A stretch of 64,000 nucleotides of DNA, taken from positions 1 through 64,000 of IMG/VR virus record IMGVR_UViG_3300032038_000062; one strand, given 5' to 3'. The notes under the pieces were generated by a model. It made no database searches and was not told where the DNA came from. It saw only the letters and a list, made by a program, of their open reading frames with translations. This DNA comes from a virus. Of the stretch, positions 3,404-61,836 are shown one piece after another. Position numbers and translations under genes: made by a program. The first letter of the stretch is position 1; every line of letters starts with the position of its first letter.

Positions 3404-4688
3404 AACTCTTACAACGATTTGAGAATCCGTCTTTCGCTCTTCCTTTCCTCATAAAAAAGTTTGAATCGAGAAGGAGCGTTCTGCCGCAGCGCGCGCAAGT
3501 TTTGAAATTTTCGGGGAAGAAAATATTTCCTATGACTAAGTAATGAAGTTCTGCCGCTTCGTTAATTTTTTTGATGATTTGTTGACGAAAAATTGTTGAA
3601 ATATAGTTGACGGTATAAGAGCGTGAGTATTTTTCGTTAATAAAGTCTGCGATTTTTTGGTTTGGATATTTTTTGATTTTAAGAGAGAGAATATCTCGGT
3701 GAATTGGCGTTAAGTCCGCCATACTAATATAGAAGTTGAGAGTGTCGAGAAGTTCTTGACTAAGGCCTTCGACTTGTGGGGTTTGGGCGGAGTCCTCGAT
3801 ATCGTAGTAGGAAAGAAAAAGTTGGTAAACGTGTTCGAGTTCTCGAAAATCGAAGAAAAGAGGATTTTCTTTCTCGTTGCGCGACCAGTAGATTTGGGAA
3901 ATAGAGGCTAGTTCTTTTTCGGAGAAAGACTTGGGGTCAAGGTTATGGAAATCGGAAAAGAGTTTTTTTGAGGTTTGGTCTTTCTTTTGAAAGATGCCAA
4001 GTGGATAGACTGGGATATCGTAATCGAAAGTTAGGAACTCGGGATGGAATTGAGGTTGCGGAAGAATTGATTGGAGAGGTTCAGAGTAGGAATCGCGAAG
4101 AGAGAATTGTTCTCGGCGCTTTTCTACGAGAAGGTGGCGAAGTTTAAGATATTGGAAAGGATTAAGGGACTTGGCGCGAAGTTCAAGTTTTTCTTTTTCC
4201 TCGTCGGAAAAACGAGAAAGAAGTTCAGAACGGGGAGGAGTCTTTCTCTTCCCACTCTTAATATCGTAGTAGTTTAGGAGAAGATCGAGAGAGTCGATTT
4301 CTAGAAAGAGTTCGGAGAATTTTTCTTTTAGGGGAGTGGGAGCTTTTAAGAGAGCTTCCTCTCGATTAAAGGTTTCTTTCTTAATTTTGAGTGGGGGAGA
4401 AGAAGGAGATAGGATTACTTGTTCGTTAAAAGTTGGGGTTTCGAGAAGAGCGTCTAAAGATTCTTCTTCGTTCTTTCTATTCCAAGTCTTATTTTTAGTT
4501 TCGATATTAATTTCTTTTTTTTGGACTAGGTTTTTTCCGTCTTTTTCTTTTCCCCAAAGTATATAGTTAGCACAAGTTTCTTTCTCTTCGGGAGTTAAAG
4601 AGAAGTTAATTGAGTTTAGGTAGTTATGAAGAAACTCGGTGCGTTCTTCGATTGTGTCTATTGAGAAGTTTAGTTTAAGTCTATTCAT
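3357..4688 (-). CDS. Hypothetical protein with C-terminal zinc ribbon (CARCG...CKSCEK)
   Basis: 443-aa ORF, first gene of the leftward operon, RBS AGGAGG upstream. Confidence 0.5.
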   Translation of the reverse strand: MNRLKLNFSIDTIEERTEFLHNYLNSINFSLTPEEKETCANYILWGKEKDGKNLVQKKEINIETKNKTWNRKNEEESLDALLETPTFNEQVILSPSSPPLKIKKETFNREEALLKAPTPLKEKFSELFLEIDSLDLLLNYYDIKSGKRKTPPRSELLSRFSDEEKEKLELRAKSLNPFQYLKLRHLLVEKRREQFSLRDSYSEPLQSILPQPQFHPEFLTFDYDIPVYPLGIFQKKDQTSKKLFSDFHNLDPKSFSEKELASISQIYWSRNEKENPLFFDFRELEHVYQLFLSYYDIEDSAQTPQVEGLSQELLDTLNFYISMADLTPIHRDILSLKIKKYPNQKIADFINEKYSRSYTVNYISTIFRQQIIKKINEAAELHYLVIGNIFFPENFKTCARCGRTLLLDSNFFMRKGRAKDGFSNRCKSCEKEIRGGKKKEETK

Positions 4689-4913
4689 TATAGCCTCCTA
4701 TTATAATTTTCCCTCTATTAATATTATACCATAGGGTACATTAGTTTGTCAATTTTTAATTTCGTGAAAATTTATGATGTTAAATTTCAATTTTTAATTT
4801 CGTGAAAATTTTGTAGCAGACCCCGTAGGTCGATTACCAAAAATTGGCAAATTTCCTAAAATATACCCCTGTCAATGGGTAAAAAAATAAAGCGGCATAA
4901 AACCGCCTTACTT

Positions 4914-5237
4914 TTATATTATTTCATTTTCCTCGGTTAGATAAATTAAAAACCAGTATAAAATAAATTTTCTATCCTTAATACAGTTGTCAAGAAAAAA
5001 CCATTTGACCTCTGTTTTTGTTTTTCCTCTTGTAAATTCCGCCAAAAGTATTTTGATTTCTTTTCCGGTCTTTTCCTCTAAAAAATCAATGTTGTATTGT
5101 TCCTCTTTCGGGTTAATGATAATATCACCTTTCCAGTATTCCGTAATAAAATCAATTAAATAGATATAGCTTTTTGTCATTGTTAAAACCCCTTTACTTA
5201 AATAAAAATGTTTTGTTTTTCTTGCTAGGGCTTGCAA
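4914..5237 (-). CDS. Hypothetical protein. The real start is probably MTKSY near 5188.
   Basis: ORF plus conserved leader CATTTTTATTTAAGTAAAGGGG before the internal ATG. Terminator hairpin downstream at 4880-4912. Confidence 0.4.
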   Translation of the reverse strand: MQALARKTKHFYLSKGVLTMTKSYIYLIDFITEYWKGDIIINPKEEQYNIDFLEEKTGKEIKILLAEFTRGKTKTEVKWFFLDNCIKDRKFILYWFLIYLTEENEII

Positions 5238-5266
5238 GGCATTTCACCTTGCAAGCCTTATTTTTT

Positions 5267-5899
5267 TTACTTGCTGATACCGTACCATTCAATAAAATCA
5301 TCAAAAGTAATTCCATTAAAAAATAAATCACTTGTAAACTTTTCAAACTTGCTCTTGCTATTAGTAAAAGATTGTATTGACAAAATGTCATAATACCATG
5401 CGCCGCCGCTCTTTTTAACAGTATTCATATAGCCGCTAACTTTCTTGCGAATTAAGCCGTTATTTTTAAGGATATCCATAAAGTCGGATATCTCAAAAAA
5501 TAACACTTGCTTTTTAACGCTCTCTGACGGATAAAACCGCGGTACATACGCGATAAAATCACTTTTCATTAAAGGGCTTGAAGCGATAGAGCCGTCGCTA
5601 TTAAGTGTCGCCAAAGTGCCCGCGCCGCTCTTAATTTCAATTTTAACTTGCTTTCTTTTTTCGCCGTCTTTTTGATACTTTATGCAATCAAATTTGTTAT
5701 TGCCTTGTACCTCTTTAGAGCGGCTATACAAACCTAATTCAAAGTTAACAGCGCGTTCTAAAGCTCTGCCCTCAGCGCCGCTATTAACGCCTTTTTGCGC
5801 TTTTACATGAACATTCACATTTTGCGCGTATTCTAGATACTGTGCAAGCATAGCCGCCGCGATTGCTTTTTTAGTATTGCTGTTGTTGTTGTTTTTCAT
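5267..5899 (-). CDS. Hypothetical protein
   Basis: 210-aa ORF. Shares the 5' leader CATTTTTATTTAAGTAAAGGAG with the 4914 gene. Confidence 0.5.
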   Translation of the reverse strand: MKNNNNSNTKKAIAAAMLAQYLEYAQNVNVHVKAQKGVNSGAEGRALERAVNFELGLYSRSKEVQGNNKFDCIKYQKDGEKRKQVKIEIKSGAGTLATLNSDGSIASSPLMKSDFIAYVPRFYPSESVKKQVLFFEISDFMDILKNNGLIRKKVSGYMNTVKKSGGAWYYDILSIQSFTNSKSKFEKFTSDLFFNGITFDDFIEWYGISK

Positions 5900-7407: not shown

Positions 7408-7764
7408 ATGAAAGAAAAGAAAAAGAAAGAGAAAGATAACTTCCGTTTCTTTTTCATGACTATAAGTATACTTACTGCTGTAGTTGTTATTCTTGTGGGA
7501 TTTGTCGTAGTGATTTTGGAGTATAACACATCAATAGCGAGAATAAAAGTAAACATCTATCCGCTTTTAACCACAGTCACAGGAGTAGACAGAGATAAAG
7601 ACCTCGTAACCGTAGAAGATAATAACGGCTTTATCTGGCAGTTCGAAGGCGCAGATGATTGGGAAGAAGGCGACTTATGTAATTGCCTTATGGATAGCCA
7701 AGGAACAGAAAAAATTTTTGATGATGAAATTATAATGACAAAATATGAAAGCGGCGCGAGGTAG
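7408..7764 (+). CDS. Hypothetical membrane protein (one TM)
   Basis: 118 aa, RBS AAAGGAGGAG, hydrophobic segment ILTAVVVILVGFVVVIL. Confidence 0.55.
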   Translation: MKEKKKKEKDNFRFFFMTISILTAVVVILVGFVVVILEYNTSIARIKVNIYPLLTTVTGVDRDKDLVTVEDNNGFIWQFEGADDWEEGDLCNCLMDSQGTEKIFDDEIIMTKYESGAR

Positions 7765-7904
7765 CGCCCTTTCTTTCTTATTTTAGTTTAGACTTCTAAA
7801 GTCTAAGATTTTCTTGGAATTTTTTGGAAAAAATTTTTTGGAATTTTTCTTAAAATATATTAATTTCCTAAAATTAAGGGTTGACATTTTCCCATAATTA
7901 TGGT

Positions 7905-8100
7905 ATAATATAGACAATGAAAGAGAGAGAGAAGGGAATGATTCCAATGTGGTTGTAATTCACTAAACAATTCAATCAATAAACCATTCGATTGATAAAC
8001 CAGATGTACCAGACAGAAAGGGTTAAAGCAATGGCAAGAGATTCTCCCAATTAAGATAATATTGATATTTTGCTACGGAGGGGAATAATCCCCTTCTTTT
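7905..8100 (+). ncRNA. Candidate small non-coding RNA (promoter-to-terminator unit with no ORF)
   Basis: Early promoter GGGTTGACA...TGGTATAATATAGAC at 7868-7905. About 180 nt with only a 13-codon ORF. Strong terminator GGAGGGGAATAATCCCCTTCTTTTTT at 8073-8100. Confidence 0.45.
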
Positions 8101-8263
8101 TTATGTATTTTTAGACTTCTAAAGTCTAAGGACAAAAAATTATTTTGAAAAAGTAGTTGACTTTTTTATAACTCTATGATATAATATAGATACAGTCAAG
8201 GGAGATAGAAACCGACTGAATATAAAATTTGGGTGGCGACCGTCGCTAAAGGAGTTTTTATAA

Positions 8264-11768: not shown

Positions 11769-12116
11769 ATGGCAGACAAGTACACTCAGAGAAATTTTTT
11801 GACAGACGTTATCAACGGCAATATTACCGAACAGGTGACCGCCTACGCCGAGGAAAGACTTGCGAAACTTGACGAGAAGAACGAAAAGCGCAAGGCTGAA
11901 ACCTCCGCCAATCAGCTCAAAAATATCCAGCTCGGCGAGGATATTGTCGCCTTCGTTACCGAGAACGGCGCGCAGACTACTTCCGAGATTGCAAGACAGT
12001 TCGGTGTTTCTACTCAGAAGATTGCGCCTATCACCAACGCACTTGTGAAGGAAGGCAAGCTGACCGAAACCACAAAGACGGTAGACAAGAAAAAGTATAA
12101 GGCGTTTACAGTTTAA
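11769..12116 (+). CDS. Winged-helix DNA-binding protein, paralog B
   Basis: 115 aa from ATG 11769. About 60% identical to 8264..8616, with a conserved leader and stem-loop upstream. Confidence 0.6.
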   Translation: MADKYTQRNFLTDVINGNITEQVTAYAEERLAKLDEKNEKRKAETSANQLKNIQLGEDIVAFVTENGAQTTSEIARQFGVSTQKIAPITNALVKEGKLTETTKTVDKKKYKAFTV

Positions 12117-33022: not shown

Positions 33023-33817
33023 TTACCTAAACATATCTTTAAAGACCAGATTAAGGATATAATTTCCCTTCTTATGAGAAGCACTATAATCTTCTTCTCT
33101 TGATGCTCTACCACCAAAAAAGAGAAGGAATGGTCGCGCAAGTTCCTTTAATTCTTTAAAATCTCCCTCAATCAACTGCCTTTGTTCTTGTGTAAATTCT
33201 TTACTTCCATTTTTTACAGCAAGAAGTTCTTTCTTGGACATTCCATATGGCGCGCAATCATTTTCCACAATATCATCGTAGAAAACACTTTCATATAAAG
33301 GATAACCCTTTAAAAAAGATTGCAAAACGCCAGCCATATAAAAACAATGATGTGCTCTATAATGCCCATTTCCATTAGTTTTATCCCAATCAAAAGCAGT
33401 TACTCTGCCCATAATCTCTCGAAGCAGAGCGTTTTCTTCTCCATAGCTGCTTTCATACAAAACTTTCTCACAATAATCTCCCATATATACTTCATAATCA
33501 CGGTGGAAATAACTGTATTCTTCTTCTCTAAATAGGTAACTATAACAACACATATAGTGACGTAAATCGCCGTTTTCCTTAAAGAACTCTCTCATATCTT
33601 TAACGATAACAGTATCTCCAAGGACTTCAACTTCTTTTGATTTTACACCTTGTACATCATAAACCTCTTCTTTATGTGGAAAAACATAAAAAATACAGTC
33701 AAGGTCACTATTAGCGTCGTTTAATCCAGTAAGTTGACTGCCCCAAACGAAAGCCGCGAAAACTTCTCGTCCATAGCTCTTTTCATATTCTTCTAACAAT
33801 TTAGATAAAGTATTCAT
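33023..33817 (-). CDS. Pol-beta-superfamily nucleotidyltransferase domain protein
   Basis: N-terminal G-S-x(9)-S-D-L-D motif (WGSQLTGLNDANSDLD). The C-terminal 180 aa are unassigned. Confidence 0.5.
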   Translation of the reverse strand: MNTLSKLLEEYEKSYGREVFAAFVWGSQLTGLNDANSDLDCIFYVFPHKEEVYDVQGVKSKEVEVLGDTVIVKDMREFFKENGDLRHYMCCYSYLFREEEYSYFHRDYEVYMGDYCEKVLYESSYGEENALLREIMGRVTAFDWDKTNGNGHYRAHHCFYMAGVLQSFLKGYPLYESVFYDDIVENDCAPYGMSKKELLAVKNGSKEFTQEQRQLIEGDFKELKELARPFLLFFGGRASREEDYSASHKKGNYILNLVFKDMFR

Positions 33818-39587: not shown

Positions 39588-39752
39588 CTTTATCCCACCT
39601 TATCTTACTGCCGCAACAATGGCAATATTTATCGAAGCGGAGAATTATTGTTCGACATTCTCCACAAGTCCAACAGCTTAACTTTTTAATCGGAATTGTA
39701 CCTCTAAGTATTCTCAAAAGTCTTCTCATATAATCCTCCTTCTTAAATAATA

Positions 39753-39826
39753 TGGCGGCGCCGCCCAGACTCGAACTGGGAAGGACAGAATCAAAATCTG
39801 TTATGTTACCATTACATCACGACGCT
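39753..39826 (-). tRNA. tRNA-Gln (anticodon TTG)
   Basis: Hand-folded cloverleaf; anticodon loop TTTTGAT; A1/C72 unpaired (Gln-like weak 1:72); CCA encoded. Confidence 0.55.
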
Positions 39827-39935
39827 ATATCTATGGACTTTCTGATAGATGGGCAACTTCAACGAGAGGTTTTCTATCTTTTTGGTATCCATTACGAGGG
39901 CTTATCCCAACCAACCTATCACGTGAGTAGGAAAT

Positions 39936-40028
39936 TGGCGACGCGGGTGAGACTCGAACTCACACACCACCGAAGTGATTACTCAGGGATTAGCAATCCC
40001 CTATCTTACCAATTAGGCTTACCGCGCC
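39936..40028 (-). tRNA. tRNA-Ser (anticodon GCT), type II
   Basis: Long variable arm, loop TTGCTAA, T-loop TTCGAGT, CCA encoded. Confidence 0.7.
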
Positions 40029-40198
40029 AAATCTTTATCTTTATAGATAATCATAGCAAAAAAGTTATATATATAATCCTCTCTTATTACAAACTTAATA
40101 TCTATAACTTCTTGCCTATCGCGCTCTAGTTTTTCAATTTCTCGGTTTATTTTGTCTTCAAGTGTAGTCGGTTTTTGTTCAATTAATATTTTTACTTT
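40019..40198 (-). CDS. Small hypothetical protein inside the tRNA array
   Basis: About 59 aa from MKVKIL with RBS GAGGTAA; preceded by a repeated 150-nt element. Confidence 0.3.
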   Translation of the reverse strand, partial: KVKILIEQKPTTLEDKINREIEKLERDRQEVIDIKFVIREDYIYNFFAMIIYKDKDLAR

Positions 40199-40366
40199 CA
40201 TGTTACCTCGCATTTATATAAAATGAAGTAGATAAGGATTTGCACCTTATATGTGCCTTAGTATCCTCCAAAAAAATCCCGTACATAACGTCTCGGTTTT
40301 AATTACAGTCTGTTACCCACAGCAACGCTTGCGTCTACCTATTCCGCCACTACTTCATATATCTAC

Positions 40367-40442
40367 TGGCACGCCTAGAGGGACTTGAACCCACAACCAG
40401 CTAGTTCGTAGCTAGCTACTCTTTCCATTGAGCTACAGGCGC
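40367..40442 (-). tRNA. tRNA-Arg (anticodon ACG)
   Basis: Anticodon stem GCTAG/CTAGC with loop CTACGAA; T-loop TTCAAGT. Confidence 0.7.
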
Positions 40443-41758
40443 ATATTAATCAGTCAAAGCAACAACAATAGCAGCCGCAACAGCCACAGAGAGAAACAAT
40501 CCTATTAAAATTCCTATAATAATAATGGGTATAAATATATTAACATAACCCAAAAATATTAAAATAGCAAAAAAGACGATAAAAATAAGGGAGATATATA
40601 CAATACTTTTGATTTGATTTCTTTTCATATAATCAATGATACGGTTAAATTTATTCTTCAATGCAGTATTCCTCTACAAAATAATGTATTCCACTCCTAT
40701 AAGCAATTGAATCAAGTTCTTCAATAGAAAGACCTTTTACTTTTTCTTCATCTATTGCCCAAACAGCAACAAGCGCATTCTCAGCCATTACTTCATCGAG
40801 CATCTCGTAAAATTTTTCCTCGTCTTCACTATCTTCTTCGCTAAGACAGTTGGTAGCTCTTTCTCCGAGAGAGGTCATAATATCATCGTAATCGTCCATA
40901 AGATTCATACATCTCTCAAAGCAGAAATCACAGGCGTCATTCATATCTTTAGCTTCGATAACGCCAGAGTCTTCAATGCCATGAAGACCTTGGTAGATAT
41001 TTTCTGTTGCATAGTAGTAAAATCTGCCCATACTATCCCTTCTTTCTTTTCTTCTTCTTTTGTCCTCCACGGAAAGAAATTTTGGTATCAAAACCGTGGT
41101 TAGTAATCTTATCATCATTAGTAAGTCCGATAGACTCTCTACGCTCAGCGGCGGTACGCTCTAAAGAAAAATATTCCTCTATTGCTAAATAGATGTCTAA
41201 GGGATTAATTAACTCAGCAAAGCCGCTTGCCTTTAAAAGAGGAATATCATAGATTATAGTACGCTCATTATTACGATAACCATACTCTACGCTTAAACTA
41301 TACTCCTTTGTATAATTACCCCTATTAATTGCATCAATAGCAATTTTATGCTTTCTATCTTCTGTCTTTGCTGACCAATGAGCAAACCAGTCATCGCCTT
41401 TTAACTTGATATAATTAAATGAAAGGAGTTTTCTATCGGTATTATAATTTGTCCAAGTTAAAACGAGATTAATAATATAATCTTTTACGTAGCCGTAGTC
41501 ATCTAAGTCAAGAACCTTAGCCTCAAACAACCAAAATCTATTACATACTTGGAGTAAAATATATGAAATTTGACCCAGTTTATTAATGCCGTAAGTAATA
41601 TAATTTAAACCTTTACAAACTTCGTCTTTAGTAAGAATAAAAGACCTAGTTCTATCGAAAGTTACTGTTTTATCGGGATAAACACCTTGTAAGTAATCAT
41701 AGAAGTCGTAATTCTTGTCTATAATCTTCACAATAGAACTCCTTTCTTCGATATTATT

Positions 41759-41835
41759 TGGAACCCCGACTCGGATTCAAACCGAGGACATACCGCTTAG
41801 AAGGCGGTTCTTCTGTTCAGGCTGAAGTACCGGGG
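41759..41835 (-). tRNA. tRNA-Arg (anticodon TCT)
   Basis: Anticodon loop CTTCTAA; T-loop TTTGAAT. Confidence 0.6.
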
Positions 41836-41844
41836 TATATAATG

Positions 41845-41918
41845 TGGACCACCAAGCGGGAGTTGAACCCGCGCCTTTTGGTTGGAAGCCAAATATTCTA
41901 CCGTTAAACTACTGATGG
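41845..41918 (-). tRNA. tRNA-Gly (anticodon TCC)
   Basis: Stem TTTGG/CCAAA with loop CTTCCAA; T-loop TTCAACT. Confidence 0.65.
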
Positions 41919-42211
41919 ATATTCCAGCTGTTAATAAACCGCTGGCGCTTCGAGCGGATTGCCTACGATAAAATCATTGAAAATTGTGTAGTAATCGCCT
42001 TCTGATACAAGCCACAGCTCTTCAAATTCAAGAGCATAAAGATTACCGATAATAGACTTTGCGCGAACCTTTAGACCATTGCCGTCCTCGACAAAAACCT
42101 CTTTATCACACTTTGCTGCAAGTGCGGTAATAGTTTCGGCTTCCTTTACTGTGTCCATATAGATTTTTGCTCTCATAAGAACCTCCTAAAAATTTTAATA
42201 CCCGAAAGGGC

Positions 42212-42294
42212 TGGTGGTAGTGACAGGATTCGAACCTGCACGCCGAAGCCATACCTTCTAAAAGTACGTTGTCTGCCAATTCCAGCACACTACC
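42212..42294 (-). tRNA. tRNA-Leu (anticodon TAG), type II
   Basis: Acceptor GGTAGTG/CACTACC, loop TTTAGAA, T-loop TTCGAAT. Confidence 0.55.
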
Positions 42295-42301
42295 TTATAT
42301 G

Positions 42302-42386
42302 TGGTGCCAATAATCGGACTTGAACCGATACGCCCGAAGGACAAGAGTGTTTGAGACTCCCGTGTCTGCCGTTCCACCATATTGGC
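42302..42386 (-). tRNA. tRNA-Leu (anticodon CAA), type II
   Basis: Loop CTCAAAC; T-loop TTCAAGT. Confidence 0.65.
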
Positions 42387-42544
42387 ATATTCAAGACACT
42401 TTTATATAACTTTCTCATTCCTTAAATAAGTGTTGTATAAATAAAGTTGCTGTAAGTGTCTTTTATTTCTCTCTTAACTTTCTATATATATTATAACAAA
42501 TATATTATAAAAAAGCAAATTAATATATTGATTTATAAATAAAA

Positions 42545-42616
42545 TGGTGGGAAATGGTGGATTCGAACCACCGCTACTGTCACAAACTAGCGTGCTACCA
42601 TTACACTAATCATCCC
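42545..42616 (-). tRNA. tRNA, possibly His (GTG); acceptor and anticodon stem imperfect
   Basis: T-arm GGTGGTTCGAATCCACC and CCA present; anticodon assignment tentative. Confidence 0.4.
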
Positions 42617-43061
42617 ATAATATACCAATAGTAGGACTACTGCCCTACTACTGGCTTTTAATTTATTCTGATTTATTTTCCGCAAAGCCGCCAGAAAGCA
42701 GCATTAACGGCAACAAATTATCTGTTGAACCCTCATTCTTATTCAAAAGCAAAAACATAAGTGGATTAATCTTATTTGAACCACCCATCGCCATCATCAG
42801 TGCCATCGTACTCATATCCAAACATTATCACTTGCTATGTCACCCTGTAAAATCATAGACATTGGCTCTTCCATCAAATTTCTCCTTTCTTTCTTCTTTT
42901 GGTGCACCACCTCGGTACTGCCCCGAGCATCCCCAAATTAAAAGTTTGGTGCCTTACTTCTTGGCTAGTGGTGCTAATTAAATTATCAAAGTACAAAACA
43001 CAAGTTCAGGGTTATAAATTAAAAGTTTATTCCTAAATTATAATTGCTGTATGTGTCTATG

Positions 43062-43135
43062 TGGTACGAAGGGAAAGAATTGAACTTTCATCTATCGCTT
43101 ATCAGACGATTGCCCTGCCATTGTGCTACCTTCGT
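43062..43135 (-). tRNA. tRNA-Ile (anticodon GAT)
   Basis: Loop CTGATAA; T-loop TTCAATT. Confidence 0.65.
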
Positions 43136-43409
43136 ATATGACTGGAATTTATCTCGTTAGTCCAGTGGCTCCGGCATCCCTACTTCTATCCCGCGTGAGC
43201 TAGCGGCAAGATTTACTTTGCGTCTTTATTAGTCGTTTTCCACTAAAGCCACATATCACTAACTTAAAGTTGAGTGCCGGTGGTAGTTTAATCTTGAAAT
43301 CCATGATAACGACCTCTGAGTGTTCCTGCGTAGCAACAGTTATCCTTTGAGAATGGGTGGTTGATAATCCGAAACCGCCAACGATTGAACGCGTTATGCT
43401 ACTAAGCGC

Positions 43410-43486
43410 TGGTACTCCATATTAGAATCGAACTAATGACCTCCTGTTTGTAGGACAGGCGCTCTAACCTGCTGAGCTAATAGAGT
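43410..43486 (-). tRNA. tRNA-Val (anticodon TAC)
   Basis: D-stem GCTC/GAGC; anticodon stem CCTGT/ACAGG with loop CCTACAA. Confidence 0.55.
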
Positions 43487-43764
43487 ATATGGTGACCGAG
43501 TGTGCAGTTAGTCGACTGGTGTAACCTCCCAGCGCTTCAATCACACGCATCCCCATTGGATTTCACAAACTTTTATACTAGGACTTCCGCGGCGAACTAC
43601 CTCGTTGAGTTGTTACTCAATGTGTTCCAATTAATTAGGGCTATATTTTCTTCTCGGCTTTTAATACTTGCCTATCGGTCAAATAGTAGTAATTGGTTTA
43701 GCCTATCGTTTATAGTGCCGTTGAGACCGATTGGACTACTACTAATCTCCTCTTGCACTTATTG

Positions 43765-43837
43765 CGACTCCAACGGGACTTGAACCCATGACCTCTAGCG
43801 TGACAGCTAGCGTTCTACTCTTCTGAACTATGAAGCC
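43765..43837 (-). tRNA. tRNA, probably Asp (GTC); CCA not encoded
   Basis: T-loop TTCAAGT; anticodon region CTAGC-TGTCAC-GCTAG has a 6-nt loop as read. Confidence 0.45.
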
Positions 43838-44051
43838 ATATCAGGGCTTTAAGGTCAGCCAACCGCACATTTGTTGATTGCTGGAATTTTTGCTTTTCCA
43901 ATCTCTTAATTGTAACTTCATTTATCGTTTCTAAAGTTTTCTTTCCTTAACTTTCTATATATATTATAACAAATATATATTAAAAAATCAATTTTTCTTT
44001 TCTTTTATCTTTTACGAATAATAGCTACTTAATTTTTCACCAGAAAATATT

Positions 44052-44127
44052 TGGTAGAAGCTAGGAGAATTGAACTCCTGACCTGTTGTTTGCAAGACAA
44101 CTGCTCTACCAGCTGAGCTAAGCCCTC
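44052..44127 (-). tRNA. tRNA-Ala (anticodon TGC)
   Basis: G3:U70 identity pair present; loop CTTGCAA. Confidence 0.65.
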
Positions 44128-44191
44128 AGATATTGGGTTATTGTTGCACTATCAACTACTTACAAGGTCCTCTTACCTAAGCCCATATTAA

Positions 44192-44267
44192 TTGGCACGG
44201 CTCAAGGGATTTGAACCCTTATCCGAGGTTTTGGAGACCCCTATTCTAGCCCATTGAACTATCGCCG
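44192..44267 (-). tRNA. tRNA-Trp (anticodon CCA), acceptor base imperfect
   Basis: Loop CTCCAAA; T-loop TTCAAAT. Confidence 0.5.
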
Positions 44268-44350
44268 CATATATTGGCAGTCATTTCCTACTGCCGTGAA
44301 GATTAAAGGATTCCATCTTCTATATTCATATTCCAGAATATACCCTTATA

Positions 44351-44425
44351 TGGCTCCAAGGGTGGGATTCGAACCCACAACCACTCGGTTAACAGCCGAA
44401 TGCACTACCATTGTGCTACCTTGGA
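44351..44425 (-). tRNA. tRNA-Asn (anticodon GTT)
   Basis: Loop CTGTTAA; T-loop TTCGAAT. Confidence 0.7.
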
Positions 44426-44618
44426 ATATATAACCGACAGTGGGGTGACACTCCCACATCTCCTTTAATCCTCCTTTAAAGGCGACAGCTGCCCGTTCCG
44501 TCCTTGTCGATTTATAATGGTTTTTCTATCTTAAAGATATAGCTATAAACAAGGTCACCATAAACTATTCTGTGCCTCCATATTCACTCTATAGCAAAGA
44601 AAAATATTTCAACGGCGC

Positions 44619-44703
44619 TGGTACTGATAACAGGACTTGAACCTGCACGCCAATAAGACAATAGAACCTTAATCTATCGCGTCTGCCAATTCCGCCATAT
44701 CAG
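44619..44703 (-). tRNA. tRNA-Leu, type II (anticodon reads AAG, unusual; TAA not excluded)
   Basis: Perfect 7-bp acceptor; loop TTAAGGT. Confidence 0.5.
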
Positions 44704-44729
44704 TATATAATCATGCTGCATATTAATAT

Positions 44730-44814
44730 TTGGTGGGCAGGGTTGGACTCGAACCAACGTATCGTTACCGAGAGAGGGTTACAGCCTCCTGCAATTGCCG
44801 CTATGCGACCTACC
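44730..44814 (-). tRNA. tRNA-Tyr (anticodon GTA), type II
   Basis: Loop CTGTAAC; T-loop TTCGAGT. Confidence 0.65.
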
Positions 44815-44823
44815 CATATAAAA

Positions 44824-44900
44824 TTGGTGCACCGTCAGGGACTTGAACCCTGAGCCTACTGATTATGAGTCAGTTGCTCTGACCAACTGAGCTAACGGTA
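44824..44900 (-). tRNA. tRNA-Met (anticodon CAT), elongator type
   Basis: G1:C72 paired; loop CTCATAA. Confidence 0.7.
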
Positions 44901-44906
44901 CAAACA

Positions 44907-44983
44907 ATGGTAACTCGTAGGAGATTCGAACTCCTGCTTTCAGATTGAGAATCTGATGTTGTAGCCAACTTAACTAACGAGCC
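44907..44983 (-). tRNA. tRNA-Glu (anticodon CTC)
   Basis: Stem TCAGA/TCTGA with loop TTCTCAA. Confidence 0.6.
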
Positions 44984-45057
44984 ATATTAATGTTAGAATC
45001 AACCACTTATCTAACTTTGATAGACCTCAGACATTGCTCCTTTCTATCTTACCCCTC

Positions 45058-45135
45058 TGGTGACACCACTGGGGATTGAACCCAGACTCTCCACCTTGAA
45101 AGGGTGGCGTGTTATACCGATTCCACTATGGTGCC
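45058..45135 (-). tRNA. tRNA-Glu (anticodon TTC)
   Basis: Stem CCACC/GGTGG with loop CTTTCAA. Confidence 0.7.
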
Positions 45136-45381
45136 ATATAAATTCCCTTTCGGGAAGATGACCGTAGGTAACTGTCTGGTTACTCCTTTCGACTAGATAC
45201 CAAGCTAGCCGCTACTTCACGACGTAGAACGATAAGTTATCCTATCCACTTATAGGGTAGTTATTCTTTTCGACAATAACCACTTAAACCCGCAGACCTT
45301 TATGGCGCTGAAAGTTCCTTTTCTTTTCTTAACTTTCTTTATATATATTATAATGTATTTATATAAAAAAGTCAAAAATTT

Positions 45382-45627
45382 TTAATCTAATTCCCACCAA
45401 TAATCGAAAGTTCGTCTATATGAACCACCATTAGGAATATCCTTTGTATGTCGAACCTTTCGATTACTCAAATTGCGGAGGTATTTTGCTCTTTTAGATT
45501 TATAAAATCTAACCCATCTATGTTTTTCTTCGTTATACCAAATGGTGCGATGTCCAGCTCTAGCAAAAGTTTGCCTTGCCCTCTTTATATCTCCCATTTT
45601 TCTACGGTGGCTCATAGTAACCTCCAA
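45382..45627 (-). CDS. Small basic (R/K-rich) hypothetical protein inside the tRNA array
   Basis: 81-aa ORF with RBS GGAGG; preceded by the repeated 150-nt element. Confidence 0.4.
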   Translation of the reverse strand: MEVTMSHRRKMGDIKRARQTFARAGHRTIWYNEEKHRWVRFYKSKRAKYLRNLSNRKVRHTKDIPNGGSYRRTFDYWWELD

Positions 45628-45800
45628 GGTTTATGAATTAGCATATATGATAAGGATTTGCACCTTATATGATAGTCTTTACCTCGGTGCGGGTCGCACG
45701 TGTCTTTAAACTCTTTTTTTAAGTGGTAGCGCTAATTCCACCCTGGCAACTATCTCCCGCTAGCGCGTCTACCTATTCCGCCACATATATACTATTTTAA

Positions 45801-45895
45801 TGGCGATGCCCCTCGGATTCGAACCGAGACGCCGCATCCCTACGACTACTAATGCTTTTCAAGAGCATTTCCTTACCAATTAGGATTAGGACACC
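45801..45895 (-). tRNA. tRNA-Ser (anticodon TGA), type II
   Basis: Stem ATGCT/AGCAT with loop CTTGAAA. Confidence 0.7.
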
Positions 45896-46358
45896 ATATA
45901 AGGAATAAGACTCATCTTATTCCTTAACCCATAGTCCGAAGACGTCTGGGGCAATTCAAAGAAAAAATCAGAAACGGTCTTGCCAAACCACTTCTTACAA
46001 AAAGTATAAATACTTTTTCAATCATAATATAAAAGGTTTTCTCATTTCGAAGATAACCTTAAACTCCGCTCTTTCGTTACTACCCAAGAGTGCGTCACAC
46101 AAAGGTGATAGGGAATCCGCCACGGATGCTATATTATTATAGGTTCCCGTTATTCTGTCCATCTCTTTAACCCACCGTGGAGGTTTACTAGTATTAACTA
46201 CGGGCGAATTAGTTTTCATATAACAACCAGTATTAGAAAACTATTATAAAAGACTATACTGACGTATTTTAGGGTGTTCCCCAAGGAATACAGTTTCCAA
46301 ATTGTACAGACTCTTGTTTAAACAGGTACACGACGTGAACATATCTGTACTGGTACCC

Positions 46359-46432
46359 TCGAAGTGGAGGGATTCGAACCCCCGATATCACGGTCCCAAA
46401 CCGCGCGCCTTACCAAACTAGACTACACCTCG
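46359..46432 (-). tRNA. tRNA-Pro (anticodon TGG); CCA not encoded
   Basis: C1:G72 (Pro-like); loop TTTGGGA; T-loop TTCGAAT. Confidence 0.55.
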
Positions 46433-47164
46433 ATATTTGGTGGTTGTATTTTTAAGTCTTCACCCACCGAAGTTCGGACTCACATAACTAAATACACAAT
46501 AATAAATACATAAATAATAAATACATAATCGTCCTACCCTAAGTATTCTAGGAAGACTCTATTTATCTTTACACTATTTCTAAACCAATACATATAATAC
46601 CTCAATTCTAAAAATAACTATAAATTAATTAACTAATGTTTATGAAATACCATATAATCGGCTCTCCTTTCTTTTTAGGGTACTTAATTTTACAACATAA
46701 TTTAATAAATGGACGATTATGTTGGGAGGCAACTTTCAATTGTCTACCTCTAAGTTTGAGTGTCTACCGCCACTACTTATTTTTTTCTATTAATTTTTAA
46801 CTTTAACTTTAATCGTGGCAGGATAACTGTTACTCCTCACGAGAACAACGATACTAAGCCGTTGACCTTGTCGCACCTGTATCGCCGGACGCCTTGCGCT
46901 TGCTTTCTCCCACTAAGCTGGGGATAATTACCACTCTAATTATCAAGAGACACAGTTTCACCCGCCTACTGTCAAGTCAGCGTTTAACGCACACTCTCAC
47001 GTCTAAACCTCCTCGGTGTTTAGACACCGCCTTTCATCGAATGGAAAGGTACACTAACTCTTCTATCGGGACGCAGTCCGACGCCCGCATTTATTTAACG
47101 ACACTGTCGATGTCACTAAACTCAGCGATTTCATATAATTTTTTCTAAATAATCCTGAGTTTAA

Positions 47165-47238
47165 TGGTTACAGGGATGGGACTTGAACCCATACCTCTAG
47201 CTTATGAGGCTAGTAAGCTCCCATTACTCTACCCTGTA
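47165..47238 (-). tRNA. tRNA (anticodon CAT), second copy; Ile2 (lysidine) or Met
   Basis: Stem CTAGC/GCTAG with loop CTCATAA. Confidence 0.65.
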
Positions 47239-47243
47239 ATATG

Positions 47244-47315
47244 GAGATTTCGCGCGGACTTGAACCGCGACTTCTGGTTTTGCAGACCAGCGCCTTACCA
47301 GTTTGGCTACGAAAT
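47244..47315 (-). tRNA. tRNA-Cys (anticodon GCA)
   Basis: Stem CTGGT/ACCAG with loop CTGCAAA. Confidence 0.7.
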
Positions 47316-47403
47316 CATTTCTTTTCTCTTAACTTTCTATATATATTATATTATAATTATATAAAAAAGTCAAAATAGATTTTATTGCTTTTACTGTTAA
47401 GAG

Positions 47404-47480
47404 GCTAGAAAGATGGAGCAAGTAGCCGGATTCGAACCGACGTCCCCAGTATGGCGCACTAGAATTCTAAACAAACTAAA
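47404..47480 (-). tRNA. tRNA with non-canonical anticodon loop (GCGCCAT); identity undetermined
   Basis: Good acceptor and T-arm (GTCGG TTCGAAT CCGGC) and CCA; anticodon loop lacks U33. Confidence 0.45.
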
Positions 47481-47483
47481 CTA

Positions 47484-47558
47484 TACCTGCATATGGAGCC
47501 GAATCACCGTTATGCTCGGAGGTCAAGAGGTTACAAATCTCCCGTTTTACTGATTAAA
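47484..47558 (-). tRNA. tRNA-like, possibly Thr (TGT), with non-canonical T-loop
   Basis: Perfect acceptor GCCGAAT/ATTCGGC plus CCA; D-stem GTTT/AAAC; loop TTTGTAA. Confidence 0.4.
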
Positions 47559-48411
47559 CTAATTCGGCATATTAAGTACTAAGTATTGTTCCTTTCTTCA
47601 TCTGTATATTCATAAAAAAGGAAGTAAAAGAAACAACTTTCCTTATTTACTTATTAATTTAGCTATCTTATTATTATACAAGACGCGGATAGCTAAATAC
47701 AAATAAACAAATACTCAATGTAACTTTTATCTTCCACGAGAACCTCTCATTCTCACATTATTCCAATAAAATATTTTTAATAAATAATAAATTGCTGATT
47801 GCGTCTTATTATAGAATATTTCGGTGATATTAAGTGGGACTTTAAGAGTTAAGGTATAAAATTTTAATGCAAGACACCTTCCAGTGTTGGATTTGAACCA
47901 ACTAATCTTTTTTTGCTAAAAAGACGAATTAACCATTATCTTCGGAATAAAATTGCTGTACGTGTCTTATTAAGATTATATATTAACTTTGCAGTCGCCG
48001 CAACTCACGTTTCAATGCTTTTATGATTCTCGCATTAGCTGTCGCATCACGCGATTCGAGCTTTTTAATTCGATTTTCATAGTAAAGTTTTGTACGCATT
48101 TAATCACCTTTCATTTAATACTCGACACCTTTTGCAAATAAGCAGGCAGTTTATTGATGGAGCCTAATCATTTTATAGCGTTGCTGCAAGTGTCTTTTTG
48201 GGGAACCAATAGATTATACTAGGCTAAAATTTTCAAAGTTAAAAAGTGCATATGATAATTAACTTCTTTGCGCTACGCTTTTAGTAACGGTTTACATCGC
48301 CGCTTCTAGCCTCTTATAGCTAGCTATAAGTTTACGAAAAGTATAATCAGCTTTGAGGTCAGCCAACCGCACATCTTTATCCTGTACTCATAGTCGAATT
48401 TTGCTAAGACT

Positions 48412-48500
48412 TGGTACCGGTCACCAGACTCGAACTGGTACGCCTATTAACTAGGCTACGGATTTTAAGTCCGCTATGTCTTCCATTCCATCACACCGGC
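48412..48500 (-). tRNA. tRNA-Leu (anticodon TAA), type II
   Basis: Loop CTTAAAA; T-loop TTCGAGT. Confidence 0.6.
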
Positions 48501-48771
48501 ATTTATATTAAGGATTCGAGCGCTTTACTAAGAAGAAAGTCGCGCGGCTTTTGATAACGCAGAGCCGCCAAACTGCTAGCAAAGAGAATTTATCTTAAAA
48601 AAGTTATTACCCCGTTAGCGCCGAGAGGGCGGTCTTTTTAATGAAAGGAGTGACAGATAGAAACCGATTGCCGCCCTCTCGTTCAACGAATTAACTTTAA
48701 ATCTCTTAACTTTCTATATATATTATAGCAAAATTATTTATTTTTTGCAAATTTTTTATTGCTATATTATC

Positions 48772-60363: not shown

Positions 60364-61836
60364 TTACGCCAGAGTAACTGGCGCATATCTTTCAGACATT
60401 AACACATCTTCCATAAGTTCGATAGCAGTCTTATCAATAGAATTAATAAGTTGCTTAAAAGTAGAAGTTGCATGACCGCCAACAAGAAGAACATTCTTAT
60501 CTTTTGTCAAGAAAGTATCATTTCTACTATCAACATTCCAGAAGATTAGCTTAGGCAACTTATAACCCTTACTTTCGTAGAGCTTTTCCATTGCCGCCAC
60601 AAAATCGGTGCTGCCGCAATTATCAATCTCCATATCAGAAACGACTACAACTGCCTTTGGCATTTCTTCTGTGGATACGCCCTCTTCAATAGCTAAGCCT
60701 AAAATCTGTCTAAATACAGATTCTAAGTTAGTATTCATACCCCAATCTGCTCTTGCTACTCCTTGAAGAATAGACAAAAGAGAAGACTCTTCGGGAATTT
60801 TATGAAATCTAGGGCTAGAAGAGAAATTCATAAACAAGTTATGATATGCTCCCTTATTTCTTTGTGCAAAATAAACGGCAAGACCAAGAGCACTAGAAAT
60901 AGGCAATCTATCACAGTCAAACATCGAACCAGAAGTATCCGCAACCACAATGACATTTGATTCTGTGCCATTGAGATAATCAGGGAGCGCCTTCCACTGA
61001 GCCTCAATTACATCATCTATCATTGAGTTAATACCATAGCCGCGAATATAAGAACGGACTAAATCATAGGGATAAAGAACATCCGCCTTAATAGTTTGCT
61101 CTCCACTCTTAACCTTATTCATAAAGTCGGAAAATGCTTCTGACTTCAACTTAAAAGCATTACGATATTTCTTCATCGCATAACTGGGAACAGACTGGAA
61201 ATCAATGTCATTCCACTCTCTTGCACTCATCTTCTTCTCGACAATTTTTAAGTGAGCGCGCAACTTAGAGAGAAGTTTACGATATTCTTGTTCAGAAATA
61301 TCCCAAGCCTTACAAATTTTCTTCGCTAAGGCGCGAGTTGCTTTTGAAGAAGTATTAATAGAAGGAAGCCACTTAGCTAAAAGAGAAATGTGCGCTTTCT
61401 CTTTAAGCATACCTAGAATTAAGTTATCAGAAATGATAACTTTTCTAAGATATTCAAGTACCCCATTCTCTAAACTTGTACCAAAAAGTACATAAAGAGA
61501 ATCCCAGCGGTTATACTCTTCCACAAGGTGGAAATTCTTTCTAACAACTTCAGGATGGTTTTCTGCCAGCCATTTTAAAACCACCTTAAAAGTTCTTCTT
61601 TCTCCTAAACCACCTCTGATATCACCGCAATAAAAGGCGCACTTAGTAGCAAGTAATGGATTTTCATTAAAAGCCGCGGCAAACTTTTCAGCAATCTCAT
61701 GCTCTTGACGTGAGCGTAATGCACCACAAGTTGAGAAAAAATCTAACATAGCGCTATCAGTCGTATTATATGCTAAAGCGCCATTTTCAGTTAAAGTTTC
61801 TGTACTCTTTGTTGAAAATGCTTCTGCAAAATTCAT
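60364..61836 (-). CDS. vWA-domain protein (TROVE / DUF2828-like N-terminal region plus C-terminal von Willebrand A domain)
   Basis: MIDAS motif DTSGSM in VIVVADTSGSMFD followed by a Rossmann-like pattern; N-terminal about 280 aa alpha-helical. Confidence 0.6.
   Translation of the reverse strand: MNFAEAFSTKSTETLTENGALAYNTTDSAMLDFFSTCGALRSRQEHEIAEKFAAAFNENPLLATKCAFYCGDIRGGLGERRTFKVVLKWLAENHPEVVRKNFHLVEEYNRWDSLYVLFGTSLENGVLEYLRKVIISDNLILGMLKEKAHISLLAKWLPSINTSSKATRALAKKICKAWDISEQEYRKLLSKLRAHLKIVEKKMSAREWNDIDFQSVPSYAMKKYRNAFKLKSEAFSDFMNKVKSGEQTIKADVLYPYDLVRSYIRGYGINSMIDDVIEAQWKALPDYLNGTESNVIVVADTSGSMFDCDRLPISSALGLAVYFAQRNKGAYHNLFMNFSSSPRFHKIPEESSLLSILQGVARADWGMNTNLESVFRQILGLAIEEGVSTEEMPKAVVVVSDMEIDNCGSTDFVAAMEKLYESKGYKLPKLIFWNVDSRNDTFLTKDKNVLLVGGHATSTFKQLINSIDKTAIELMEDVLMSERYAPVTLA

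Follow-up and report, generated by a model that had tools for sequence, protein, structure and literature searches.

A T5-style phage tRNA array with rebuilt-elbow tRNAs for threonine and lysine, and with gene copies that appear to be decaying

Near-complete sets of transfer RNA (tRNA) genes are carried by lytic phages such as the mycobacteriophages with C1 arrays and T5, the latter studied against PARIS and retron PtuAB. In T5 (AY543070, about 28-41 kb) some 24 tRNA genes form a one-strand cluster cut by many promoters; small open reading frames (ORFs) and HNH endonuclease genes lie between the tRNAs, and the annotation lists a pseudo-tRNA and 'tRNA-like stable RNAs with unknown functions' among them. 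A cluster of similar content occupies positions 39753..48500 of a 64,000-nucleotide stretch of viral DNA (IMG/VR record IMGVR_UViG_3300032038_000062, positions 1 to 64,000), called here the window; judged by layout, the T5 region is its closest known architecture. The two differ in promoter sequence, share no megablast-level similarity, and are further set apart by a skipping-rope RNA in the window and by ROOL RNA and transfer-messenger RNA (tmRNA) in its relatives. We consider it probable that this is a T5-style phage tRNA region in which the atypical members are of two kinds, lesions of the lineage and conserved tRNAs with an alternative elbow. The array itself is of a known type; what we judge to be new is the correlated redesign of the elbow, as a conserved class of phage tRNA.

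The window is DNA of a rumen-type phage, encoding a terminase, tail-fibre-like proteins and a 2292-amino-acid (aa) DUF6273 protein. Its array consists of 27 tRNA genes in 8.7 kb, all on the minus strand, as are all array features located below by window coordinates; the genes take up 2124 nucleotides (nt) of the 8748-nt region. An original prediction from the letters had counted at least 26 tRNAs, and every anticodon it listed is confirmed. At default settings ARAGORN reports 24 tRNAs between 39753 and 48500. The Rfam model RF00005 contributes two more, one His-like (42548..42615, 41.3 bits) and the other Thr(TGT) (47497..47568, 41.7 bits), and recovers Lys(TTT) (42903..42974, 44.5 bits) when a 121-nt input is searched with lax filters; all 27 loci, at 37-73 bits, exceed the gathering score of 29 bits. 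A third tool was a cloverleaf scan written for this analysis, which ignores loop sequence and yields about 1.2 false matches per 128 kb of shuffled sequence.

A megablast search of the array against GenBank phages gave no match, and contigs found through the flanking 594-aa and 255-aa proteins (L002-L006) are too distant for the array to be aligned. Syntenic relatives were located by searching with proteins encoded inside the array. L012 is a 6.8-kb metagenome contig, 80-95% identical in nucleotide sequence, with the order Asp-Val-Ile-[ROOL]-Lys(TTT)-Lys(CTT)-His-Leu-Leu-Gly-Arg. L013, L014 and L015, from ENA assemblies of which one bears the label of a 2019 rumen data set, jointly cover the array from Leu(TAA) to Ala at about 85-98% identity across aligned blocks (86-98% in spacers). 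More distant is L001, a 68.5-kb IMG/VR contig with 31 tRNAs, a tmRNA, a ROOL RNA and a tRNA(CTA).

The canonical elbow signature, G18 G19 in the D-loop with U54 U55 C56 R57 A58 in the T-loop, is present in 23 of the 27 genes. Four depart from it: Thr(TGT), at 47494..47568, has A18 G19 with AGCAU; Lys(TTT), at 42900..42974, has A18 G19 with GGCAG; Arg(TCT), at 41759..41836 (reported by ARAGORN; 52.1 bits in Rfam), has G18 A19 with UUUGA; and Gly(GCC), at 47414..47490, has G18 U19. A 7-nt anticodon loop with U33 on a stem of 5 base pairs (bp) is found in 24 genes, Thr and Lys included. The other three are Asp, with a loop of 6 or 8 nt, His, with a 3-nt deletion, and Gly(GCC), with C33. Departures that relatives keep can be told from those they do not: the Thr variant is kept among related phages; the C33 of Gly, the 6-nt loop of Asp and the deletion in His are not; and for Lys there is no homologue to compare.

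The Thr gene carries most of the evidence. It had been called tentatively and its T-loop described as non-canonical, at coordinates (47484..47558) that are 10 nt too low; the call and the odd loop both stand. The D-loop, AATCAGTA, places A at 18 and G at 19, and the T-loop AGCATAA gives A54 G55 C56 A57 U58. In L013 the gene is 100% identical, while the flanking DNA differs by 5-13%; the distant L002 has the same Thr loops with compensatory changes in the stems. An exact 18-mer from the Thr T-arm found no match in IMG/VR; a search with the D-arm then succeeded, and TAGTTTAATYAGTAAAAC is present on 41 IMG/VR viral contigs, which yield 13 distinct Thr(TGT) sequences. Among these the loops are invariant and the stems turn over: standard pairs fill 95.6% of stem cells (69% in shuffles), 13 of 21 pairs have changed on both sides (about 9.5 in shuffles), and the covariation score of 0.70 compares with 0.15 in shuffles and no more than 0.17 when partners are slid. 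At 15 loci an alternative-elbow gene is the sole Thr tRNA, and ARAGORN misses about half. One copy lies unannotated in the tRNA array of a cultured phage, Aeromonas phage phiWae14.

The Lys gene had been overlooked, with the suggestion that Lys and Phe tRNAs might be hidden in the spacers. This holds for Lys; Phe, present in relatives, has been deleted, and its absence from the window array is genuine. ARAGORN misses the Lys gene even at 80% stringency, as do filtered Rfam scans; in the cloverleaf scan it forms 20 of 21 pairs. It has a D-loop of the form ..AGTA, the T-loop GGCAGTA, the anticodon loop CTTTTAA, A73 and an encoded CCA. Alternative-elbow tRNA-Cys genes of two other phages (L108 and L109) carry the very same D-arm, and a Gly(TCC) gene (L054) the same T-loop; no other Lys gene with the same D-arm was found in the search.

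The class is wider than these two genes. The Thr D-arm is shared by Ala (with G3:U70), Trp, Ile, Phe, Lys and Gly tRNAs, whose T-loops have the form NGCRNNN. A scan of bacterial genomes for it gave 50 matches, of which about 4-6 are true tRNAs, on short contigs or contigs of metagenome-assembled genomes (MAGs), and the rest chance occurrences in A+T-rich DNA. The linkage between the loops was measured in 192 cloverleaves with TC or GC at T-loop positions 55-56, none of them fetched by D-arm patterns. GG in the D-loop accompanies TC in 175 and its loss accompanies GC in 13, leaving three with GG and GC and one with neither GG nor GC; loss of GG thus tracks G55 (Fisher's exact p=1.5e-16). In the alternative elbow G18 is replaced by A together with replacement of pseudouridine 55 (Ψ55) by G, and U54·A58 becomes A·U or G·G. 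The elbow's remaining supports (PMC7912444), namely G19:C56, R57 and G53:C61, stay in place. Arg(TCT), with D-loop ..GA.. and T-loop TTTGAAT, has a third swap, A19:U56 for G19:C56. Two genes of L001, Glu(CTC) at 5752..5824 and Gly(TCC) at 11991..12061, keep GG, U55 and C56 and have A54..U58 (ATCGTGC) or G54..G58 (GTCAGCA), so the 54·58 swap also occurs alone. A smaller form, of about 55-60 nt with an acceptor stem, the alternative D-arm, a TGCAATT T-arm and no anticodon arm, was seen on L060, L064, L034, L042 and L056 (Mycoplasma-type MAG contigs and three viral ones).

The comparisons identify Thr(UGU) and Lys(UUU), at the level of sequence, as intact, selected tRNAs whose elbow has been rebuilt by correlated changes. 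As they are the array's only decoders for their amino acids, they most likely work in translation. Such a tRNA could receive neither 5-methyluridine at position 54 (m5U54) nor Ψ55, and would present a different D-loop and elbow to the proteins that read them. Other tRNAs have lost the universal D-loop and T-loop signature and still translate, namely tRNA-Pyl and type II mitochondrial tRNAs (PMC7609411), and the 54·58 pair is altered, to A54·A58, in eukaryotic initiator tRNA (PMC7912444). The tRNA-Pyl and mitochondrial forms have altered arm lengths or lack contact of the D-loop with the T-loop, whereas the phage class keeps the 7/4/5/5 cloverleaf with G19:C56, R57 and G53:C61, and swaps only 18/55 and 54/58. 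A 2020 review of non-canonical tRNAs contains no phage tRNAs (PMC7609411), and no prior description of phage tRNAs with a G55/A18 elbow was found in the literature searched, which is no proof that there is none.

Why the elbow was rebuilt can be approached from two sides. The first supposes that the D- and T-loops were reshaped so that defence nucleases, for example PARIS/AriB-like Toprim enzymes, no longer bind, while the ribosome and synthetases still do; it adds a purpose to the account given above and does not replace it. The original prediction had likewise suggested that aberrant members might act against host anticodon nucleases. That idea does not fit the lesioned genes discussed below, and does fit Thr(UGU) and Lys(UUU), for AriB has two prime targets, tRNA-Lys UUU and tRNA-Thr UGU (PMC12409363), and these are precisely the isoacceptors with an alternative elbow in the window. 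AriB makes base-specific contacts with the D-loop and also contacts other body positions; U16->C impairs cleavage, and a swap of the anticodon stem-loop alone does not restore cleavage of T5 tRNA (PMC12409363). Neutralisation of PARIS and retron effectors by phage tRNAs is documented (PMC11464382, PMC11555353), and phage tRNAs proposed or shown to resist such defences depart from host-type sequence at nuclease contact sites (PMC10264068, PMC11464382, PMC11555353, PMC12409363). The class is almost confined to viral or short MAG contigs, outside ordinary bacterial tRNA sets, and Thr(UGU) is by far its commonest form in the scans, with an Asn(GUU) form also existing (L054). The bias towards Thr, however, is in part produced by the search pattern; the form is also seen in many further isoacceptors (Ala, Trp, Ile, Phe, Gly, Cys, Val, His, Asp, Gln and Leu); and the agreement with the AriB targets was noticed after the fact. 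Moreover, the T5 tRNAs, its PARIS-resistant Thr, Lys and Asn among them, keep GG/TΨC elbows where the window's Thr and Lys do not. The nuclease escapes described so far change the anticodon loop or stem, or single D-loop bases, whereas the present class exchanges the whole D-loop/T-loop core in a correlated way; resistance here is conjecture, and an anti-defence origin can be put forward only tentatively.

The second approach sees the alternative elbow as a neutral, equivalent fold, reached under A+T pressure with relaxed dependence on modification, as in organelles, and passed on as tRNA genes were duplicated, switched anticodon and moved horizontally between phage arrays. At 30-41% G+C the genomes are A+T-rich, and tertiary partners change in concert, so that the fold is kept; the A19:U56 of Arg(TCT) looks like another neutral swap. 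That six or more types of isoacceptor have one and the same D-arm, GTTTAATYAGTAAAAC, is in keeping with duplication and later remodelling of the anticodon. Drift sits poorly, however, with the invariance of AGCATAA and the D-loop across 13 lineages with fully turned-over stems, and in the Aeromonas phage as well, which speaks for strong purifying selection on the variant; and most tRNAs of the same A+T-rich arrays (175 of 192) keep GG/TΨC. A neutral origin is a possibility that we hold with as much doubt as the anti-defence one. A more far-reaching proposal, which should be taken as speculative, is that of a widespread 'stealth' class which annotation tools, too, largely pass over: the re-coded core (A18·G55, with 54·58 A·U or G·G) would fit the ribosome and synthetases and escape the m5U54/Ψ55 enzymes and AriB-like nucleases, and in the same arrays a G55-type tRNA frame would carry variable RNA inserts.

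The atypical Asp, His and Gly(GCC) genes are a different matter from the alternative-elbow pair. Asp (43764..43837), drawn by ARAGORN as 'tRNA-???(gtca)', reads GCTAGC-CTGTCAC-GCTAG in L012; the window lacks one C, which leaves a 6-nt loop, TGTCAC, or in the alternative fold that ARAGORN draws an 8-nt loop on a 4-bp stem. Alignment with L012 also shows CCA changed to CAA and a C->T in the T-stem. His(GTG) (42545..42616) keeps G-1 and, aligned with L012, has lost 3 nt from the anticodon stem's 3' strand, so that the stem is mismatched and the variable loop is down to 1 nt; G3->A adds an A3·C70 mismatch. In Gly(GCC), compared with L013, the changes are U33->C, G19->T and C28->T. The Rfam score is lower by 14 bits for Asp (50.4 against 64.8 in L012), 19 for His (41.3 against 60.3 in L012) and 11 for Gly (44.4 against 55.0 in L013). 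The lesions sit at critical sites (anticodon-loop length, anticodon stem, U33, G19 and CCA), and L012 and L013 have canonical loops, stems and CCA at the same positions, as does L001. Since close relatives carry canonical versions, the three look impaired or decaying and not like conserved decoys; they are most simply read, from these alignments, as copies altered by recent, lineage-specific changes.

Part of this had been anticipated. The GCGCCAT loop without U33 is real (C33), though it belongs to a gene placed 10 nt too low at 47404..47480, and Asp and Pro are indeed the two genes without an encoded CCA, which the other 25 encode; the Asp loop and the truncated His anticodon arm had not been remarked on. 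Nor did the oddities dissolve under ARAGORN and Rfam: the 'gtca' Asp, the C33 Gly and the AGCATAA Thr all remain atypical. The functions proposed for the aberrant members fare less well. Suppression is not supported by the anticodons, none of the 27 genes having CTA, TCA or TTA, a type of tRNA that L001 does carry in its tRNA(CTA). That the lesioned Asp, His and Gly genes are deliberate decoys, frameshifters or nuclease-resistant variants is very unlikely. Mutation of the anticodon loop is a proposed route of escape from anticodon nucleases (PMC10264068), Asp and His belong to the Q34 type of tRNA, which colicin-E5-like enzymes cut (cf. PMC10264068), and the lesioned genes still lie in transcription units with intact neighbours. 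Against this, the C33 of Gly and the lost CCA of Asp, like the other changes, are absent from the nearest relatives, canonical at the same positions; each gene has several independent degenerative changes; these hit ribosomal necessities (the 7-nt loop, the 5-bp anticodon stem and the variable loop); and there is no stop-reading anticodon. Sequencing or assembly error in the window contig is an equally strained explanation, if anything a shade more so: what Asp lost is one nucleotide of a CC run, and the lineage is represented by one sequence, but the types of change within a gene are several (substitutions with an indel, a 3-nt deletion in His) and long ORFs are unbroken, including that of 2292 aa, which speaks against an indel-prone sequence. 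Several independent changes per gene together with intact long ORFs make such error unlikely. The earlier interpretation is thus partly supported: C33 and the missing CCA are probably damage, and the tentative Thr and overlooked Lys are the interesting part.

Some points weigh against this division into rebuilt and damaged tRNAs. The Lys gene has no close homologue, so that its own stems give no evidence of covariation; 'functional' is a term that here means conservation and covariation; and the three-dimensional pairing of A18 with G55 is inferred from sequence correlation. Each lesion was compared with one close lineage, the direction of change being taken from the canonical state and from the distant L001. 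Relatives also hold lower-scoring tRNAs (Tyr, Asn and the second CAT tRNA in L013 and L014), so erosion is not unique to the window. C33 does not necessarily abolish function, and genes for Phe, Asp and His could lie outside the 64-kb window.

As a decoding set the array is near-minimal: U34 serves the four-codon boxes, G34 or U34 the two-codon boxes, and A34 is used for Leu-CUU and Arg-CGU. This matches the phage's own preference for A/T-ending codons. CTT makes up 60% of CTN codons and is read by Leu(AAG); AAA, ACA/ACT and GAA are also favoured. Of the suggested compensation for codon usage, what is supported is this fit to the phage's own codons. The array would probably keep phage translation running independently of the host tRNA pool; supply of codons, insurance against tRNA depletion, or both, are benefits that we infer and that are not separable here.

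The remaining genes were called by both ARAGORN and Rfam. From the low-coordinate end they are Gln(TTG) (39753..39826, 52.2 bits), the class II Ser(GCT) (39936..40028), Arg(ACG) (40367..40442), Gly(TCC) (41845..41918), Leu(TAG) (42212..42294), Leu(CAA) (42302..42386), Ile(GAT) (43062..43135), Val(TAC) (43410..43486) and Ala(TGC) (44052..44127), which has the predicted G3:U70 pair and an A2·C71 mismatch. There follow Trp(CCA) (44193..44268), Asn(GTT) (44351..44425) and the Leu-like gene with anticodon AAG (44619..44704), a good class II tRNA with A34 that scores 51.4 bits and is 97.8% identical in L013-L015. Beyond these lie Tyr(GTA) (44731..44815), an elongator-type Met(CAT) (44825..44901), Glu(CTC) (44908..44983), Glu(TTC) (45058..45135), the class II Ser(TGA) (45801..45895) and Pro(TGG) (46359..46432), with C1:G72, A73 and no encoded CCA, which is encoded in L013 and absent in L001. 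The series ends with a second CAT tRNA (Met or Ile2; 47165..47238), Cys(GCA) (47242..47316) and the class II Leu(TAA) (48412..48500).

As in T5, promoters interrupt the series. The motif TATAATATATATAGAAAGTTAAG occurs in 9 copies in the window, against 0 expected. Five copies, exact or near-exact versions of a sigma-70-like promoter, lie in the array, with TTGAYT ahead of them at 17 nt, at the positions predicted and in the direction of the tRNAs: 48705..48751 (TTGCAA-17-TATAAT with ATATATAGAAAGTTAAG), 47328..47373 (TTGACT-17-TATAAT), 45328..45375 (TTGACT-17-TATAAT, the core with three mismatches), 43946..43991 (TTGATT-17-TATAAT) and 42473..42518 (a motif match). These strong copies appear to divide the array into several units.

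Comparison with the relatives also shows what the window lineage is missing: Phe, a 94-nt His-like gene, a 148-aa gene, two canonical Lys genes and ROOL RNA. The segment of L012 that holds ROOL, Lys(TTT) and Lys(CTT) is replaced exactly, in the window, by the single 75-nt alternative-elbow Lys gene, which therefore stands in the ROOL slot. The 94-nt gene, at L013 10900..10993 and also in L014 and L015, is a tRNA-His(GTG) between Tyr and Phe according to ARAGORN, goes unreported by Rfam and is deleted in the window. L013 has, upstream of the array and between a 2232-aa gene and a membrane-protein gene, a 609-aa reverse transcriptase (RVT_1; 3538..5367), and inside the array a 225-aa HNH_3-like gene (7484..8161); the window has neither. 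By analogy with the HNH genes of T5, mobile elements appear to remodel the array region. The Asp-Val spacer (43487..43763) is 95-99% identical to L001 7550..7629 and 7763..7959, yet an array protein shares only 62% aa identity; conservation is similar in the Glu-Glu spacer (44984..45057) and in the Trp-Ala spacer (44128..44192), the latter also matching unrelated phages (L017 and L051). Such spacers are either conserved RNAs or recently exchanged array modules. A big genome had been expected, and a size well above 100 kb is plausible: the 73-kb contig of L013 overlaps one end of the window only, so the genome is probably larger than 110 kb.

Other RNAs share the array with the tRNAs. Two of them are framed like tRNAs, copy 1 at 40225..40356 (97.6% identical to L013 9840..9964) and copy 2, with the same frame around an unrelated insert, at 45643..45790; five more lie elsewhere (L013 9837.., L001 13041.., L049 1457.., L051 (-) 6269.. 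and L009 8033..). All have a covarying 7-bp acceptor-like stem, an invariant class-II-type D-arm, GCGGAATAGGTAGACGC, a covarying 6-bp T-stem, the G55-type T-loop TGCAAAT and no CCA. The inserts, of 50-122 nt (80 nt in copy 1, 96 nt in copy 2), are mutually unrelated and differ even between the near-identical frames of L049 and L051. No Rfam family matches these RNAs, and ARAGORN finds nothing even with introns and tmRNA allowed. T5 RNA1 (144 nt) is built alike: a class-II-type D-arm (GCCGGAATTGGTAGACGG) is followed by a long insert, and this by a T-arm with an acceptor-like closure. In architecture the window pair and the five others agree with it, the comparison being of plan and not of homology or RNA stability. 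In this and in its pseudo-tRNA the T5 annotation echoes the window. Directly before some 20 of the 27 tRNA genes, and before the tRNA-framed RNAs, stands ATAT (usually TATAT), which may be a shared processing context.

A second family of elements is closed by a stem. Four copies of AAGACACNTRCAGCAA (0.16 expected), at 42447..42462, 43044..43059, 47953..47968 and 48181..48196, each pair with a downstream GTGTCTT and close an element of 65-105 nt. That at 43044 encloses the hairpin ATAAA-CTTTTAA-TTTAT, a look-alike of the Lys anticodon arm directly upstream of the Lys gene. That at 47953 belongs to the element 47866..47968, in which an AAGACAC...GTGTCTT stem, with a compensatory change relative to L013, surrounds a tRNA-like cloverleaf at 47878..47952. 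ARAGORN, at a relaxed threshold only, names this cloverleaf Ala(AGC); at 17.5 bits in RF00005, over 47878..47947, it is not a tRNA. Nor is the element a YrlA-type Y RNA, defined by GNCGAAN0-1G near the 5' end, a tRNA-like D/T module and a Ro60 (TROVE) gene within 4 kb on the same strand: it has no GNCGAA motif, and the nearest candidate gene for an RNA-binding protein, 12 kb away, has no TROVE match in Pfam. That gene (60364..61836, minus strand) encodes a 490-aa protein with DUF2828 and DUF7788 that matches PHROG 850 'RNA-binding protein' (E=2e-123) and may be Ro-like.

Skipping-rope RNA and ROOL are structured RNAs of unknown function (Weinberg et al. 2017, PMC5737381). ROOL, like GOLLD, is often found near tRNAs and in phages, and no such context is given for skipping-rope (PMC5737381). 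The window has a skipping-rope RNA (RF02924; 44432..44512; 56.5 bits against a gathering score of 36.7) that matches the full model, positions 1-80 of 80, and lies 6 nt upstream of tRNA-Asn both there and in L014 (3912..3994); the family description places a terminator after the RNA, whereas here a tRNA follows. Searches of the window spacers for ROOL (RF03087) and other known large RNAs found none at E<=1, while ROOL lies inside the arrays of L012 (2899..3482, 329 bits) and L001 (15385..15989, 339 bits). One spacer, 731 nt long and free of ORFs (46434..47164, between the second CAT tRNA and Pro), is a possible structured RNA of no Rfam family. It is about 86% conserved in L013-L015, has a G+C-richer core of about 310 nt and is the only spacer to stand out in folding (z=-4.0, 20 shuffles); RNAalifold finds two compensatory pairs in the core, from effectively two sequences. 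Folding stability is unremarkable in the Asp-Val spacer (z=-0.8), in the small spacers and in the tRNA-framed RNAs.

The array also contains a gene for a very basic protein of 77 aa (45382..45615). A homologue on an unrelated contig (L016 3589..3840) sits between genes for a PTH2 peptidyl-tRNA hydrolase, a PARG-like protein and a T4-type RNA ligase 1, neighbours that suggest a link with tRNA repair. About 6 kb from the array, a 264-aa protein (33023..33817, minus strand) with a weak NTP_transf_2 match (21.7 bits, cut-off 21) is a candidate actor on tRNA 3' ends. Searches of PDB sequences with this nucleotidyltransferase-like protein and the DUF2828 protein found nothing.

Phage tRNA arrays are now seen as a counter to tRNA-targeting immunity, and the escapes so far described are small edits of the anticodon arm. 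A whole conserved class in which the universal elbow is redesigned by correlated changes would be a second way for a tRNA to remain translatable and yet be 'foreign'. The class is a natural experiment on which elbow nucleotides are needed by the ribosome, RNase P, the CCA enzyme, TruB/TrmA and defence nucleases. There is also a caution in the lesioned genes: odd tRNAs in one genome can be decaying copies, and comparison with close relatives tells the two apart. For annotation the array points to a gap, phage tRNAs being undercounted: ARAGORN missed 3 of the 27 genes here, and the GenBank record of phiWae14 annotates no Thr tRNA where one sits.

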